Of a stretch of DNA of 64,000 nucleotides, positions 3,735 to 56,928 are shown in pieces. How positions within the stretch are numbered: position 1 is the first letter of the stretch; the number at the start of each line of letters is the position of its first letter. Location of the stretch: NCBI GenBank assembly GCA_002428265.1, contig DIUR01000010.1, positions 3,639 through 67,638 of the forward strand. The letters are read 5' to 3'. This stretch comes from Bacteriovoracaceae bacterium UBA6153 (GTDB lineage: Bacteria > Bdellovibrionota > Bacteriovoracia > Bacteriovoracales > Bacteriovoracaceae). A model generated the notes under the pieces. The model saw nothing but the letters and a program-made list of their open reading frames with translations. It ran no database searches and had not been told where the DNA came from. The translations under genes and the position numbers were made by a program.

Positions 3735-5309
3735 ATGTTATTAGAAAAAATCGTCGTATTTATTATTTTCCTTGGGCCATTGGTTTTTTTCCATGAGCTC
3801 GGCCACTTTCTTTTCGCCAGATTATTTGGTGTTAGAGTTGAAGTCTTTTCAATTGGATTTGGTCCAAAACTTTTCAAGAAAAAATGGGGTGATACTGAGT
3901 ATGCAGTCTCAGCTATACCACTAGGTGGATACGTTAAGATGTATGGAGATGATCCATTCAATAAAGATGATATCCCTGAATCAGAAAGAGCAAAAAGTTT
4001 TACTCACCAAGGTAAGTGGGCACGCTTTTGGATCGTTATGGGTGGACCATTAGCGAACTTCATTTTAGCTTTCGTGATTTTCTTTGCTCTATTAATTGCT
4101 GGAGAGAGGATTCCAGAAATTAAAATTGGTGCAATCACTCCAGAGACAAGCCTTTATCAAAATGGCGTAAGAACAGGTGACGTTCTTGTTCAAGTGAACA
4201 AAAACGATGTTTATAACCCTTCTGACTTAATGGTTGATGGAAATACAATTGTTAGTTCGTTAACAATTAAAAGAAATGGCGAGACAAAAGAATTAAACGT
4301 TAACTTTGCCGGAGATAAATTCTTCGAAGAAGTTTTAAAGTATCCTCCTTTTTTAAGAAAGCCATACCTGGTTGATAACAGCGCTAATCGTTTTGTGATT
4401 ACTGCTAATAAAGATCAAACTGATTCTCAGCACTCAATTGAAGAGCTGGCGAATATGGAAAACGTAAAAACTCTTTACTTGTACCCGGTTGTTAAAGGTG
4501 AAGACCTGGCGAGCGATACAGTAAAGGTTGATACTGCTGCAGTTAAAGAAATTAAGGTTTCATACAATAATCTAAATACTCTTTTAATTGCTCTTGAAGC
4601 TCAAGGTCTAAGAACCATTGATTTAATGGTTAGAAGTGTAAACATGGGTTCTCCAGCCGATAAAGTTGGAATCAAAAGTGATGATGTATTCATTAGTCTT
4701 GAGGGACAGAAAGTTTATAGCTTTGAAGAATTAAGAACAAAACTTCAGACAATTAATAAGCCTACTGTAGATGTAGAAGTCTATAGTGCAGGTGTGCTTA
4801 AAAAAATTACAGTGACTCCTGATTCAAGTGTTCAAGATGGAAAAACTGTTAAGCTCTTAGGTGTATATAGTTTCATTGAGGTTTTAAAAACAAACTTCGT
4901 TTTAACAAAGTCTAAAGGTCTTTGGAGCTCGACAACAGTTGCCGTTGCCCGTACATGGGATTCAATGAAGAAAACTGTTGATGGGTTTGTGAAATTGATT
5001 ACAAATCAAGTTTCTCTGAAATCAATCGGTGGACCACTTGCTATTGGTAAAGTTGCCCATGATTCATTTAATACATCACTTTCATACTTCTTTCAGTTAA
5101 TGGCACTCATATCTGTAAACCTTGGTGTTATTAACCTTTTCCCAATTCCAGTTCTTGATGGTGGGCATATCATGTTCATCGTTTTAGAAATTGTGAATCG
5201 TGGACCACTTTCGAGAAGAAAGATGGAGATTGCTCAACAGGTAGGGTTATCAGTTCTGTTAATGCTAATGGTTGGTGCAATTTTTAATGATGTGACTAGG
5301 TTCTTTTAA
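3735..5309 (+). CDS. rseP: RseP/M50 intramembrane metalloprotease with PDZ domains
   Basis: HELGH zinc motif, GGPLAN, INLFPIPVLDGG. Confidence 0.95.
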   Translation: MLLEKIVVFIIFLGPLVFFHELGHFLFARLFGVRVEVFSIGFGPKLFKKKWGDTEYAVSAIPLGGYVKMYGDDPFNKDDIPESERAKSFTHQGKWARFWIVMGGPLANFILAFVIFFALLIAGERIPEIKIGAITPETSLYQNGVRTGDVLVQVNKNDVYNPSDLMVDGNTIVSSLTIKRNGETKELNVNFAGDKFFEEVLKYPPFLRKPYLVDNSANRFVITANKDQTDSQHSIEELANMENVKTLYLYPVVKGEDLASDTVKVDTAAVKEIKVSYNNLNTLLIALEAQGLRTIDLMVRSVNMGSPADKVGIKSDDVFISLEGQKVYSFEELRTKLQTINKPTVDVEVYSAGVLKKITVTPDSSVQDGKTVKLLGVYSFIEVLKTNFVLTKSKGLWSSTTVAVARTWDSMKKTVDGFVKLITNQVSLKSIGGPLAIGKVAHDSFNTSLSYFFQLMALISVNLGVINLFPIPVLDGGHIMFIVLEIVNRGPLSRRKMEIAQQVGLSVLLMLMVGAIFNDVTRFF

Positions 5310-5893
5310 TGCATTCTTTGTATGTGGATAGTACTTCTGGATTAGTGATCGGGCTGCTTGACTCAGATTTTAACTGGGTTGAGTACCTCGATACTCAAGA
5401 GAAAAAACCTTCAGAAGTTATCCATGTAGAAATCTTTAATCTTGTTAAAAAATACAATCTTGATTTAAAAAATATGAACTTCTTTTTTTCAGCAGGCCCT
5501 GGATCATACACTGGGATGCGTTTAGGAGAAGGGATTGCTCAGGTGCTTGCCTGGGATTCATTAAAGGTTTTTTCGTTTCATCATTTTGATGTTCCTGTGA
5601 TGGTAGGAGTTGAAAAAGGCTTCTGGGTAACGAATGCTTTTAAAGGGCAAGTATTTATCTATAACTGGGATGGGAAAAAAGCTGAAAAGGAACTTGTTAA
5701 TTCGGCAGATTTTAAGATTGTTGACCTTGAGTTAGGTTATACACTTTCAAGCGAAGTGAAAGATTTTGGGCATCTTAAAACGACAAAAGATCTAATAAAA
5801 AATGAGTCTCAAAAAATCTTTTCAAAAGTTTACGAAGAAAAAATGAGAGAAGCACCTTACTATTTCCGAACATTGGAAGAGGAATTTAAATAG
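5309..5893 (+). CDS. tsaB: tRNA threonylcarbamoyladenosine biosynthesis protein TsaB-like
   Basis: GPGSYTGMRLG motif and N-terminal LYVDST; shorter than a typical TsaB. Confidence 0.8.
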   Translation: MHSLYVDSTSGLVIGLLDSDFNWVEYLDTQEKKPSEVIHVEIFNLVKKYNLDLKNMNFFFSAGPGSYTGMRLGEGIAQVLAWDSLKVFSFHHFDVPVMVGVEKGFWVTNAFKGQVFIYNWDGKKAEKELVNSADFKIVDLELGYTLSSEVKDFGHLKTTKDLIKNESQKIFSKVYEEKMREAPYYFRTLEEEFK

Positions 5894-5894
5894 T

Positions 5895-6554
5895 ATGGTG
5901 AAGTCTTATCTTCCTGCCAAATTTAATACTTTTGCTTTCATTGTATTCTTTTTACTTTGGCTTTTTAGTTTTTATAAAACCATGCTACTTGCAATGGTCG
6001 CCTACGTTGTCTTGTATGTGACTTTAAGAAAAAATAGAAACGACTTTCGCGATGATCCGATGTCCACTAAAGGTGTAATGTTCTCACCGGCCAATGGAAA
6101 AATCGTGCATATCGAACACAATGTCTCGCACGGAATGTATGGTGAGCAGTTAGTGGAAATCCAGATCATGATTCCATGGTGGAAAGAGATGGGGGTTTTT
6201 ATGCCGCTATCAGCAGAGATCAAAACACTTTTAGTCCTAAAAGGTCAGTCGTTTTTCAGATATCACAAAGCTGAAGAAAAAATTGGAACGAGAGAAGGCA
6301 AAGGGGTCGCACTTGCTCTGGATAACAGAGGGGAGACGACGGGTCTTACATTTTTTAAGTGCAAAGTCGGTTTATGGCCTGAATTGATGGTTATGCCCGG
6401 TGATAGAGGCGGACGCAGAGTGAATATCGGATACTTTCCCTTTGGTGGAACAGTGATGCTTTATTTACCGAAAAAATATGAGATACTAATGAAAATAAAC
6501 GATGAAGTTACTGCGGGTGAGTCAATCCTTGCCGTAATTCCCGATCATGCCTAA
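5895..6554 (+). CDS. phosphatidylserine decarboxylase-like membrane protein, probably catalytically inactive
   Basis: SPANGKIV motif, N-terminal TM helices, located directly before pssA. The C-terminal motif reads FGGTVMLYLP instead of FGSRV. Confidence 0.75.
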   Translation: MVKSYLPAKFNTFAFIVFFLLWLFSFYKTMLLAMVAYVVLYVTLRKNRNDFRDDPMSTKGVMFSPANGKIVHIEHNVSHGMYGEQLVEIQIMIPWWKEMGVFMPLSAEIKTLLVLKGQSFFRYHKAEEKIGTREGKGVALALDNRGETTGLTFFKCKVGLWPELMVMPGDRGGRRVNIGYFPFGGTVMLYLPKKYEILMKINDEVTAGESILAVIPDHA

Positions 6555-6566
6555 AGGTTATTAGAA

Positions 6567-7337
6567 ATGCTAAATACTCCAAGAAGACTCGCTTTTTTCC
6601 TTCCTAACACATTTACTGCGTTAAATATGGCATGTGGATTCTTCTCAATCATCCTTGGATATAAAGGAGATTTTTATCAAGCTTCAATGATCCTGGTTCT
6701 TGGTGCTATTTTCGATTCAGTTGACGGGAGAGTCGCAAGAATGACTGGAACTCAATCAGCATTCGGTGAGCAATTCGATTCAATTTCAGATGTCGTTACT
6801 TTTGGTGTGGCGCCGGCATTTCTTGTTTATAACAAATTCTTTATTGGAATGGGACGTCTTGGTCTTATTACATCATTCATTTTCTTATTATGTGGAGCTC
6901 TAAGGCTTGCTCGCTTTAATGCCAACATTGATAAAGTAAGCTCTGATTTTTTTCAGGGACTTCCTATTCCAAGTGGAGCATTAGCTATTGTAGGTCTGAC
7001 TTTATTTTCAATGGAATTTCCAGAATTGTTTGATTATAAAGCTGCTTCATACGTGGCGATTGGATATGTTTTATTTTATGCCTTCTTGATGATTTCAAGC
7101 ATTCCCTTTAACTCTTTTAAAAACTCACCATGGGTGAAGTCACATAAGAAGAGAGTTTTATTTATTATTTTCGTTATTATGATTCTTATTTTCTCATACC
7201 ATGAAGTGATGATCGGTGGTTTGATCCTGCTTTATGTTCTTGGGTCTCTTCTTTATTTCTTTAAAAATAAAGGTGCCCTTGAAGAAATGTTTCACTGGAA
7301 AGGTGATGATGAAGAAGACCACGGTCATCAGATTTAA
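6567..7337 (+). CDS. pssA: CDP-diacylglycerol--serine O-phosphatidyltransferase
   Basis: PNTFT, DGRVARMTGTQSAFGEQFDSISD (CDP-alcohol phosphotransferase motif), RLARFN, FQGLPIP. Confidence 0.95.
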   Translation: MLNTPRRLAFFLPNTFTALNMACGFFSIILGYKGDFYQASMILVLGAIFDSVDGRVARMTGTQSAFGEQFDSISDVVTFGVAPAFLVYNKFFIGMGRLGLITSFIFLLCGALRLARFNANIDKVSSDFFQGLPIPSGALAIVGLTLFSMEFPELFDYKAASYVAIGYVLFYAFLMISSIPFNSFKNSPWVKSHKKRVLFIIFVIMILIFSYHEVMIGGLILLYVLGSLLYFFKNKGALEEMFHWKGDDEEDHGHQI

Positions 7338-7373: not shown

Positions 7374-8339
7374 ATGTCTGGAAGGAATCTGGCAGTTGTC
7401 TTTACCTCCCTCTTATTTTCACTATCAGTGAGCGCTGTTGACTTGGAACATTCGGTTTCAGGCGATGACGAAATAGAAAACACATTAGAAACATCGAAAG
7501 TCTCTGGAAATAGCCCTTACCTGGTCGAAGGTGAGTCTTCAGATAACGTTGAAAAATCTAAGCCTAATGGCGAAGATTATATTTTCAATCATGGGGTTAA
7601 AGAAGTTTCTGGGAAAAATAATAAACGTTATAAAGATTTTGGTTACACAATGCCGGGATCTGCTGAAAAACAAGAAAACTACATCGAGCTTGATAAATTA
7701 AAAATTGCAAAAGATTTTAGAAGAGCAGGGACGGCTGGCTTCAATATTACTTTTGTAAAAAACGACTTTGATTATACGTCTGATAACGATGTCATCAATC
7801 GCACAGTTGGGACTGGTTACAAAAGTGTAAAGGGTGGAACTATATTATTCAGAAACGATCAGTATATTTTTAAAACAGATTATTTGAATGCTCATTGGTC
7901 AATCGGTGCTGGAGTTGGATATAATTCTGGTCGCGGTATCTTCATTGATGGAACGAGAAGTAATACAACTTTCAAACTTTGGGAAGTTCCTATCGATGCA
8001 GGTCTAGGATTAGAAATTCCTTTATACAGCTGGTTTAAAATTGCAGGAACCGGAGGACCGAGTGTGATGGGTCTTATGCAAAACAGGTCTGATATCCAGC
8101 GTGGTGAAAAAGGGAAAAGGAAAATTCAAGTGAGCCCAGGATATTTCGCCAATGCTCAGTTTAAAATTAACCTGACAGGCTTTAGTGATGACATGGCCTA
8201 TGAACTATTTTCTAGCAGTGACATCACAAACTTATTTTTAAATCTTGAAATTCGCCACCAAAAGTATGCGAGCTTTCAGGATGCGATTGAAATTTCTGGA
8301 ACATCTTTTGGTTTAGGTTTTACATTTGAATATTTATAA
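7374..8339 (+). CDS. hypothetical exported protein, probable outer-membrane beta-barrel
   Basis: Signal peptide (VSA-V), alternating amphipathic strands, C-terminus FGLGFTFEYL. Confidence 0.6.
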   Translation: MSGRNLAVVFTSLLFSLSVSAVDLEHSVSGDDEIENTLETSKVSGNSPYLVEGESSDNVEKSKPNGEDYIFNHGVKEVSGKNNKRYKDFGYTMPGSAEKQENYIELDKLKIAKDFRRAGTAGFNITFVKNDFDYTSDNDVINRTVGTGYKSVKGGTILFRNDQYIFKTDYLNAHWSIGAGVGYNSGRGIFIDGTRSNTTFKLWEVPIDAGLGLEIPLYSWFKIAGTGGPSVMGLMQNRSDIQRGEKGKRKIQVSPGYFANAQFKINLTGFSDDMAYELFSSSDITNLFLNLEIRHQKYASFQDAIEISGTSFGLGFTFEYL

Positions 8340-56019: not shown

Positions 56020-56928
56020 ATGGAAATTAAGTTTTACAACCGCGTGACAGGTAAAGTGGACCATGAAATGGTCTATGGCGATAAATTTATTGAATGGCTT
56101 TATGAATCGACTTCTGGAAAAGGGATGTCACACCTTATTTGCAAAGCGCCACTCAGTAAATTTTATGGGGCCTTACAAGACAGCCCACTAAGTCAGAAAA
56201 AAGTTGCGCCATTTATAAAGAAATTCAATATCCAGATGGAAGACTATCTTCCTGAGGAAGGTCGTACTTCGAGCTCTCCTTACTCAACTTTTAACCAGTT
56301 TTTTATCCGTCGTTTTCAACCGGGAAAACGCCCTATTGTAGAAAATCCAAAGGAGATGGCAGCTTTTAGTGAAGCTCGTTATTACGGTTATGAAAGTGTG
56401 CAGGATAATGAAACTGTTCCTGTTAAAGGCCATAATCTAAAACCAAAAGCGCTGATTGCGAACTCAAAGTGGGAAGATACTTTTGAAGACGGGCCACTAC
56501 TTCTCGCAAGATTGTGCCCTGTTGATTATCACCGCTACCATTTTCCAGATGATGGAAAAATTGTTGACGACTACAGAGTCACAGGTCTTTATCACTCGGT
56601 AAATCCACTGGCCTTAAAATCAAAAGAAGACATTCTTATTACGAATGAAAGACATGTCACAATTCTTGAAACAAAGAACTTCGGAAAACTTGCCTATATT
56701 GAAGTCGGTGCCATTTGTGTTGGAAAAATCATCCAGTCAAAACCACTTGATAAGGGGAGATCGTTTGCTCGCGGTGAAGAGAAAGGCTATTTTCTTTTTG
56801 GTGGATCAACGGTCATCGTTATTGGTGAAAAAGGAAAATGGAAGCCTAGCTCTGACATTTTAGAAAACACTAAAAAAGGAATGGAGACATACCTTCATTT
56901 AGGAATGACAGTCGCAAACATCGGATAG
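56020..56928 (+). CDS. psd: phosphatidylserine decarboxylase proenzyme, intact motifs
   Basis: TFNQFFIRR, RLCPVDYHRYHFP, EVGAICVGKI and FGGST cleavage site. Confidence 0.93.
   Translation: MEIKFYNRVTGKVDHEMVYGDKFIEWLYESTSGKGMSHLICKAPLSKFYGALQDSPLSQKKVAPFIKKFNIQMEDYLPEEGRTSSSPYSTFNQFFIRRFQPGKRPIVENPKEMAAFSEARYYGYESVQDNETVPVKGHNLKPKALIANSKWEDTFEDGPLLLARLCPVDYHRYHFPDDGKIVDDYRVTGLYHSVNPLALKSKEDILITNERHVTILETKNFGKLAYIEVGAICVGKIIQSKPLDKGRSFARGEEKGYFLFGGSTVIVIGEKGKWKPSSDILENTKKGMETYLHLGMTVANIG

Follow-up and report, generated by a model that had tools for sequence, protein, structure and literature searches.

Genetic organization of the psdX locus

The window, a stretch of 64,000 nucleotides of DNA from Bacteriovoracaceae bacterium UBA6153, carries the gene order cdsA-rseP-tsaB-psdX-pssA-orf321-truA. 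The subject of this study is psdX, a homologue of short-type phosphatidylserine decarboxylase (PSD), which is packed closely between a tsaB-like gene and pssA (Table 1). The PssA protein scores 129.6 bits against TIGR00473 (cut-off 107; CDP-alcohol phosphatidyltransferase), and its motif D-G-x2-A-R...G-x3-D-x3-D is intact. The order cdsA-rseP-tsaB-psdX-pssA is kept across the Bacteriovoracaceae, and the adjacency of psdX and pssA was found at every locus inspected. Contigs from RNA libraries (X16, X19) overlap parts of both genes, none of them spanning the junction, and are no proof of transcription or co-transcription.

Table 1 Position of psdX, its motifs, its neighbours and the second PSD gene in the window.
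Feature	Position	Strand	Description
tsaB-like gene	5309..5893	+	stop 1 nt before psdX start
psdX	5895..6554	+	219-aa ORF, Ser-less homologue of short-type PSD
N-terminal hairpin of psdX	5916..6023	+	two hydrophobic helices, residues 8-23 and 27-43, then basic L-R-K-N-R (AF2 model)
S-P-A-N-G	6084..6098	+	residues 64-68; canonical S-P-A-D-G, whose Asp corresponds to E. coli D90
W-W-K-E-M-G-V-F-M-P	6177..6206	+	residues 95-104; replaces canonical x-x-N-V-H-x-N-R-x-P
P-G-D-R-G	6396..6410	+	residues 168-172; most conserved motif specific to the Ser-less family
F-G-G-T	6441..6452	+	codons TTT GGT GGA ACA, F183-G184-G185-T186; former self-cleavage site F-G-S-R
pssA	6567..7337	+	CDP-diacylglycerol-serine O-phosphatidyltransferase; start 12 nt past psdX stop
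orf321	7374..8339	+	exported outer-membrane beta-barrel-like protein, 321 aa; directly after pssA
Long-type PSD gene	56020..56928	+	302 aa, presumed working decarboxylase; D-Y-H at 56524-56532, G-G-S-T at 56800-56811

The protein encoded by orf321 leads in the ESM Atlas to clusters of outer-membrane beta-barrels (MXAN_2562-like), mostly from Bdellovibrionota, with a PagL-like cluster as a weak lead. The gene occupies the same position in nearly all family loci inspected, and in several relatives it overlaps the 3' end of pssA. In the families that possess an active short PSD, BLAST did not find orf321 beside pssA.

The window itself seems to stem from a MAG of a hydrocarbon metagenome. Several independent studies of wastewater yielded metagenomes with DNA nearly identical to window positions 5309-7337 (at least 90% of sampled words). 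These assemblies fragment into short contigs of raised depth at positions 6397-6464, where psdX is most conserved; the probable cause is that co-occurring strains have this stretch in common.

Loss of the maturation and catalytic residues

PSD self-cleaves at the Ser of its G-S site, and this Ser becomes the pyruvoyl cofactor. The Pfam model PF02666 recognises only the C-terminal 38 residues of psdX, with 32 bits (cut-off 22) and an E-value of 1.2e-7. Among the NCBIfam models for short-type PSD (PRK05305 group), the best, NF003678, aligns with psdX over its full length but reaches 53.5 bits against a cut-off of 225; this is the maximum for all 11 models, and psdX falls far below the cut-off (183-377) of each. 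Alignment of profiles with hhalign, built from 48 distant members of the Ser-less family and from 15 canonical short PSDs, joins the two groups over 198 columns with 99.8% probability and an E-value of 3.6e-29. In this alignment, the Gly of the psdX family lies on the canonical Ser, the downstream Y-L-P is in register, and a residue other than His lies on the canonical His.

The initial annotation had read the codons at the former cleavage site as F-G-G-T where PSDs linked to pssA read F-G-S-R, and re-reading of the frame reproduced this exactly. G185 occupies the column of the pyruvoyl Ser, which is invariant in the 15 canonical short PSDs. Among 150 cluster representatives of the psdX family, this column holds Gly in 139 of 148 residues (94%). 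These representatives are the best 150 from a HMMER search over 1.84 billion cluster representatives, which returned 391 clusters at E <=1e-3 and 194 at <=1e-10.

The upstream motifs are altered as well. The His of the maturation motif and the Asp of S-P-A-D-G are invariant in canonical short PSDs. The segment G100-V-F-M-P104-L-S-A-E108 contains no His, as had been noted initially, and both the sequence alignments and the profile-profile alignment agree on this point; both His of the maturation motif are missing from psdX (M99, F102), and the family-wide His column is Y, M or F in the best 150 cluster representatives. The Asp of S-P-A-D-G is gone too. Its replacement, N67, is invariant in 121 orthologues, and across the family the position is N in 43%, S in 21% and T in 10%. 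The canonical motifs NE(R/Q)N and A-x-R-R-I are likewise missing from the Ser-less family. Other residues are newly conserved. In P-G-D-R-G, conservation among 148 representatives amounts to 97% for G169, 99% for D170, 69% for R171 (K in a further 17%) and 88% for G172, and the newly conserved polar residues of the family are E108 (83%), R122 (83%) and D170.

In the E. coli enzyme, maturation uses D90/D142-H144-S254, and the S254A protein remains uncleaved (PMC7952604). Equivalents of S254, H144, H147 and D90 are all missing from psdX. Because the self-cleaving Ser, the activating His and the Asp are lost, psdX should be unable to form the pyruvoyl cofactor or to decarboxylate PS. We also considered T186 as a replacement nucleophile. 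This residue aligns after the Ser, with the R of FGSR and the T of LGST, and its column is T in 49% and S in 17% of the family, the rest being non-hydroxyl residues (K, I, V, L, A and similar). Since T186 sits one position past the Ser and only 66% of representatives have Thr or Ser there, atypical cleavage is unlikely as a conserved function, and T186 was rejected as a conserved nucleophile. The initial suggestion that Thr could at best give an atypical cleavage is refined by the assignment of T186 to the post-Ser column.

Predicted structure of psdX

An AF2 model of psdX computed with 137 diverse sequences reached a pLDDT of 93.6 and a pTM of 0.88, superseding an earlier run on a shallow alignment of 24 orthologues of at least 65% identity (pLDDT 48.5). 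The model consists of two N-terminal helices followed by an all-beta domain. R45, in the basic stretch behind the helices, is nearly invariant across the 137 sequences, and canonical short PSDs have the same anchor arrangement. By the positive-inside rule, the beta domain is predicted to be cytoplasmic. Foldseek matched the model to EIIA-Glc, to PsiD (a PSD-like tryptophan decarboxylase) and to E. coli PSD with a probability of 1.00; for the beta chain of E. coli PSD, the E-value ranges from 5e-3 to 1e-2. G184 and G185 are located in a turn between two strands, at the place where PSDs cleave. When PDB sequences were searched with the family profile, only spurious matches to transmembrane helices appeared, so that PSD chains were reached solely by fold, and psdX leads in the ESM Atlas to generic PSD clusters only. 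Prediction of a complex of psdX and PssA with two alignments gave a score of 0.00, which is below the mark and neutral on binding.

Conservation, distribution and origin of the Ser-less family

A search through 5.8 billion proteins gave 166 homologues, of which the best 120, with identities of 65-98%, all read F/L-G-G-T; those of the 120 that bear a name are labelled Bacteriovorax or Bacteriovoracaceae. G185 is invariant in 121 of 121 orthologues across this identity range, T186 is invariant within the genus, and P104 is invariant or nearly so among close orthologues. Contigs from two independent wastewater DNA studies span the F-G-G-T codons with zero differing letters. Chance, a sequencing error and a strain-specific mutation are ruled out by the invariant Gly together with the two independent contig sets. 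The orthologue alignment called for by the initial annotation thus shows a conserved Ser-to-Gly replacement; relatives carrying FGS, which would have spoken against the proposal, were absent from the family and found only in other families of Bdellovibrionota.

Within a set of 61 related genomes, psdX is present in all 28 of the same genus. In other genera of the Bacteriovoracaceae, this place is taken by homologues of 29-36% identity, which likewise have G-G. Three genera were missed by the narrow profile; each has an ORF of 192-224 amino acids between tsaB and pssA, which a broader profile recognises (E-values of 1e-34, 3e-14 and 1e-10), and two of these ORFs read L-G-G and C-G-G. In an even sample of the family, psdX was found as a single copy in 141 of 151 genomes and in 59 of 65 genera. 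No psdX match was obtained in the remaining ten sampled Bacteriovoracaceae genomes, and in about six of the 141 the gene is split between frames or contains a stop. On account of these two groups, psdX appears dispensable in some lineages. The split or stop-containing copies, among them those on G138:C32, G076:C29, G072:C26, G168:C36 and G033:C12, suggest occasional gene decay, or assembly errors. A separate irregularity is a psdX ORF of 292 amino acids in a genome of the same genus (G015:C94:1077-1949; protein P0001), which matches query residues 1-147 and then 74-218. The two matches lie in different frames and may reflect a frameshift, an assembly join, or an internal duplication of ~70 residues.

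The motif P-F-G-G-T-V-[LFM]-[LIV]-Y was also scanned in one genome per species over 185,579 species. It yielded 31 confirmed loci, mostly labelled Bacteriovorax, Bacteriovoracaceae or Bacteriovoracales, with single records from Halobacteriovoraceae, Oligoflexia, Deltaproteobacteria and Bdellovibrio sp. All eleven of the motif loci that were inspected (L066-L076) have the same operon order.

Other families of Bdellovibrionota carry a canonical short PSD adjoining pssA, with S-P-A-D-G, N-V-H-x-N-R-x-P and F-G-S-R, and at some of these loci rseP and truA lie nearby, as they do at the psdX locus. As the psd-pssA pair is common to both, psdX and the active short PSD are positional orthologues. The 48 Ser-less and 15 canonical sequences were also placed in a maximum-likelihood tree, in which one branch separates the groups with an SH-aLRT of 100. 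This topology is compatible with a single loss of the Ser and does not contradict a single origin.

Selection on psdX and the C-terminal tail of PssA

Within the genus, dN/dS values (Nei-Gojobori) of psdX range from 0.041 to 0.059 with a median of 0.045, compared with 0.030 for pssA and 0.059 for tsaB, all resting on four pairs with unsaturated dS (<1.5). The purifying selection that the initial annotation had proposed to look for is thereby seen. Over 276 pairs, the median dN is 0.164 for psdX, 0.166 for pssA and 0.338 for tsaB. Between genera, psdX has a median identity of 33% and PssA one of 55%, which corresponds to a 1.5-fold divergence of psdX relative to PssA; for active short PSDs and their own PssA the ratio is 1.0 (47% vs 50% identity). 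By these substitution measures, psdX is clearly under selection, but its constraints are looser than those on the ancestral enzyme. Faster divergence between genera under continued selection fits a binding or scaffolding role.

A further difference is seen in the partner protein. The C-terminus of PssA in the Bacteriovoracaceae consists of a conserved (M/I)-F-x-W-K-(S/G)-E followed by an acidic tail (window positions 7280-7334), whereas the tails of PssA proteins that accompany an active short PSD are basic and unrelated. In the three genera where psdX is most degenerate, the PssA tail is altered and the F-x-W is missing. The correlation may be a lead, and only that, since the lineages are related and may represent one or two events.

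An intact long-type PSD elsewhere in the genome

Besides psdX, the 3.79-Mb assembly has just one PF02666 match, a long-type PSD located ~50 kb from psdX in the same window. As had been reported initially, this second PSD keeps DYH and GGST; re-reading of the motifs places its Ser263 at the codon TCA at 56806. The protein scores 161.9 bits against PF02666 and 295.6 bits against its best NCBIfam model, NF001941, which is below that model's cut-off of 371. Long-type PSD was found in 147 of 151 Bacteriovoracaceae genomes and in 117 of the 118 high-quality ones. Among the genomes sampled from the rest of the phylum, the majority show a single strong match to PF02666, the exceptions including G045 with two and G048 with none. 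Long-type PSD was not found in the sampled families that have the F-G-S-R short type beside pssA (f6, f7, f8, f12). Such a distribution would be expected if catalysis had passed to a second PSD in the ancestor of the family, freeing the copy linked to pssA.

Three genomes of the genus contain a third PF02666 gene (G012:C9:32433-33020, G014:C19:18977-19561 and G026:C132:5281-5862). With E-values of 1e-29 to 4e-33 and frames of 277-295 amino acids, one of them interrupted by a TAA, these genes are distinct from both psdX and the long PSD.

Interpretation and alternative explanations

The best reading of the comparative sequence data is that psdX probably represents a conserved pseudoenzyme, in which the catalytic residues have been lost, fold and length have been kept under selection, and an active PSD is co-present. 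We are highly confident that psdX is dead as a PSD and that it has been functionally retained. The initial annotation had described a full-length, membrane-anchored, catalytically dead PSD in the pssA operon with an intact PSD elsewhere, and this description is borne out by the family-wide Ser-to-Gly replacement, the purifying selection, the positional orthology and the co-occurrence of the two genes. The roles that it put forward for psdX, as a PssA partner, a lipid-binding scaffold or a regulator, are hypotheses.

We postulate that psdX is a direct descendant of the short-type PSD linked to pssA. Before the sampled genera of Bacteriovoracaceae diverged, it would have lost the Asp, the activating His and the Ser of self-cleavage, which is now Gly, and PS decarboxylation would be the task of the long-type PSD, whose gene lies 50 kb away. 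Bound to the membrane and co-produced with PssA, the psdX protein would most likely serve as a non-catalytic accessory subunit or regulator of PS/PE synthesis. Its task might be to stabilise PssA, to tune it, or to retain the product PS until hand-over to the long PSD. A role with PssA is favoured because of the tight operon junction, the shared membrane location and the PssA tail. The adjacency of psdX and pssA is inherited from the operon of the ancestral enzyme, and by itself it is therefore no sign of a present functional link. Whether the retained function is that of a non-catalytic partner in the PssA or PS-PE pathway seems to us evenly balanced. The more specific version is tentative: psdX may be an obligate non-catalytic subunit of the membrane machinery of PS synthesis, which binds PssA, possibly through the F-x-W/acidic tail, or PS, and so controls how much PS is made, kept and passed to the long PSD.

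A different use of the protein is conceivable in which psdX has been neofunctionalised, either for another chemistry or for binding of a lipid or head group through E108, R122 and P-G-D-R-G, without a pyruvoyl group. The newly conserved E108, R122 and D170 could in that case form a new active or ligand site; the strong purifying selection and the fact that such family-specific polar residues are missing from canonical PSDs are in keeping with this, as is the diversification of PSD-fold proteins to other substrates, exemplified by PsiD in the fold search. However, the family conserves only three or four polar positions throughout, G-D-x-G is also present in canonical PSDs as a structural hairpin, and the fast divergence between genera suits a binding or scaffold protein better than a precise active site. 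To our knowledge, all enzymes of the PSD fold use a pyruvoyl group, and on the whole we regard a new function of this kind as rather unlikely. Somewhat similar in probability, and unlikely as well, is that psdX, in the manner of a prozyme, binds the long-type PSD to activate it, to inhibit it or to determine its location. Nearly every genome of the family does contain an active pyruvoyl enzyme together with a dead relative, and the AdoMetDC/prozyme complex of trypanosomatids offers a precedent (PMC5201418), but psdX and the long PSD are of distantly related PSD subtypes, with their genes 50 kb apart, and psdX is the orthologue of a different PSD type and no recent paralogue of the long PSD.

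The two remaining explanations deny either the importance of the protein or the loss of its activity. The psdX ORF might be a leftover, kept for the expression of pssA through translational coupling or an internal promoter, with a functionless product. The tight 12-nt junction and the lineages with very degenerate, split, stop-containing or undetectable psdX would fit such a role of the DNA; the low dN/dS, an amino-acid conservation equal to that of PssA within the genus, and motifs kept across at least 150 clusters at 50% identity do not, and the confidently predicted fold would likewise argue for selection on the protein, which makes this explanation very improbable. Still less credible is a decarboxylase that remains active, with cleavage at G185-T186 to give a 2-oxobutyryl cofactor, or with some other atypical maturation. 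Although T186 does not vary within the genus and about two thirds of family representatives have a hydroxyl residue in its column, the residue aligns one position past the Ser with L-Y-L-P behind it in register, its column is occupied by K, I, V, L, A and the like in a third of the family, and the His and Asp that activate the nucleophile are missing.

Relation to known systems and significance

The closest known counterpart of the psdX product, favoured here as a non-catalytic partner of PS synthesis, is the short-type bacterial and archaeal phosphatidylserine (archaetidylserine) decarboxylase (PRK05305; NF003678; PF02666), with which it shares its length (~215-230 amino acids), the two-helix anchor, the fold and the place immediately upstream of pssA. 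The residues common to both are F-R after the anchor, S-P-x-x-G, P104, G179, F-G and Y-x-P. In contrast to the short-type enzyme, psdX has Gly for the Ser of F-G-S-R; the His of V-H-x-N-R-x-P, the Asp of SPADG, NE(R/Q)N and A-x-R-R-I are all replaced, and P-G-D-R-G, E108 and R122 are conserved anew. E. coli PSD (PDB 6L06, 7CNW-7CNZ), of the long type with L-G-S-T, resembles psdX as a fold match and as an anchored, monotopic membrane protein of the same pathway. Unlike that enzyme, psdX has none of the residues for maturation or the cofactor, and it may be viewed as a natural equivalent of the S254A variant with further losses (PMC7952604). With the AdoMetDC prozyme of trypanosomatids, psdX has in common that selection maintains an inactive relative of a pyruvoyl decarboxylase beside an active enzyme for the same step (PMC5201418). 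The prozyme differs from psdX in its fold and family and in being eukaryotic. It also forms heterodimers with the active enzyme, of which it is a close paralogue, while psdX and the active PSD represent two different subtypes, psdX being orthologous to one of them. In the literature on PSD in connection with Bacteriovorax, pseudoenzymes or inactive paralogs, we found no paper on PSD homologues that lack the Ser.

Textbooks present PS decarboxylation as a step of bacterial membrane biogenesis that needs a single enzyme, and PF02666 matches beside pssA are routinely annotated "phosphatidylserine decarboxylase". Several sources annotate the psdX family in this way. As psdX is homologous to PSD but fails its defining catalytic features, it should not carry that name. 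For a whole clade, PSD annotations would thus be wrong, in that the copy linked to pssA would not be the enzyme and the real PSD would be encoded at another site. The locus provides a natural example of enzyme replacement, where a second type of PSD takes over the chemistry and the original is retained and reshaped under selection; such replacement with retention points to a non-catalytic role in controlling PS/PE synthesis, which can be tested in culturable Bacteriovorax and may also occur in other groups of bacteria. If psdX is indeed an obligate subunit of the PssA machinery, then, together with the beta-barrel gene coupled to pssA, it would amount to a family-specific rewiring of aminophospholipid synthesis in predatory bacteria.
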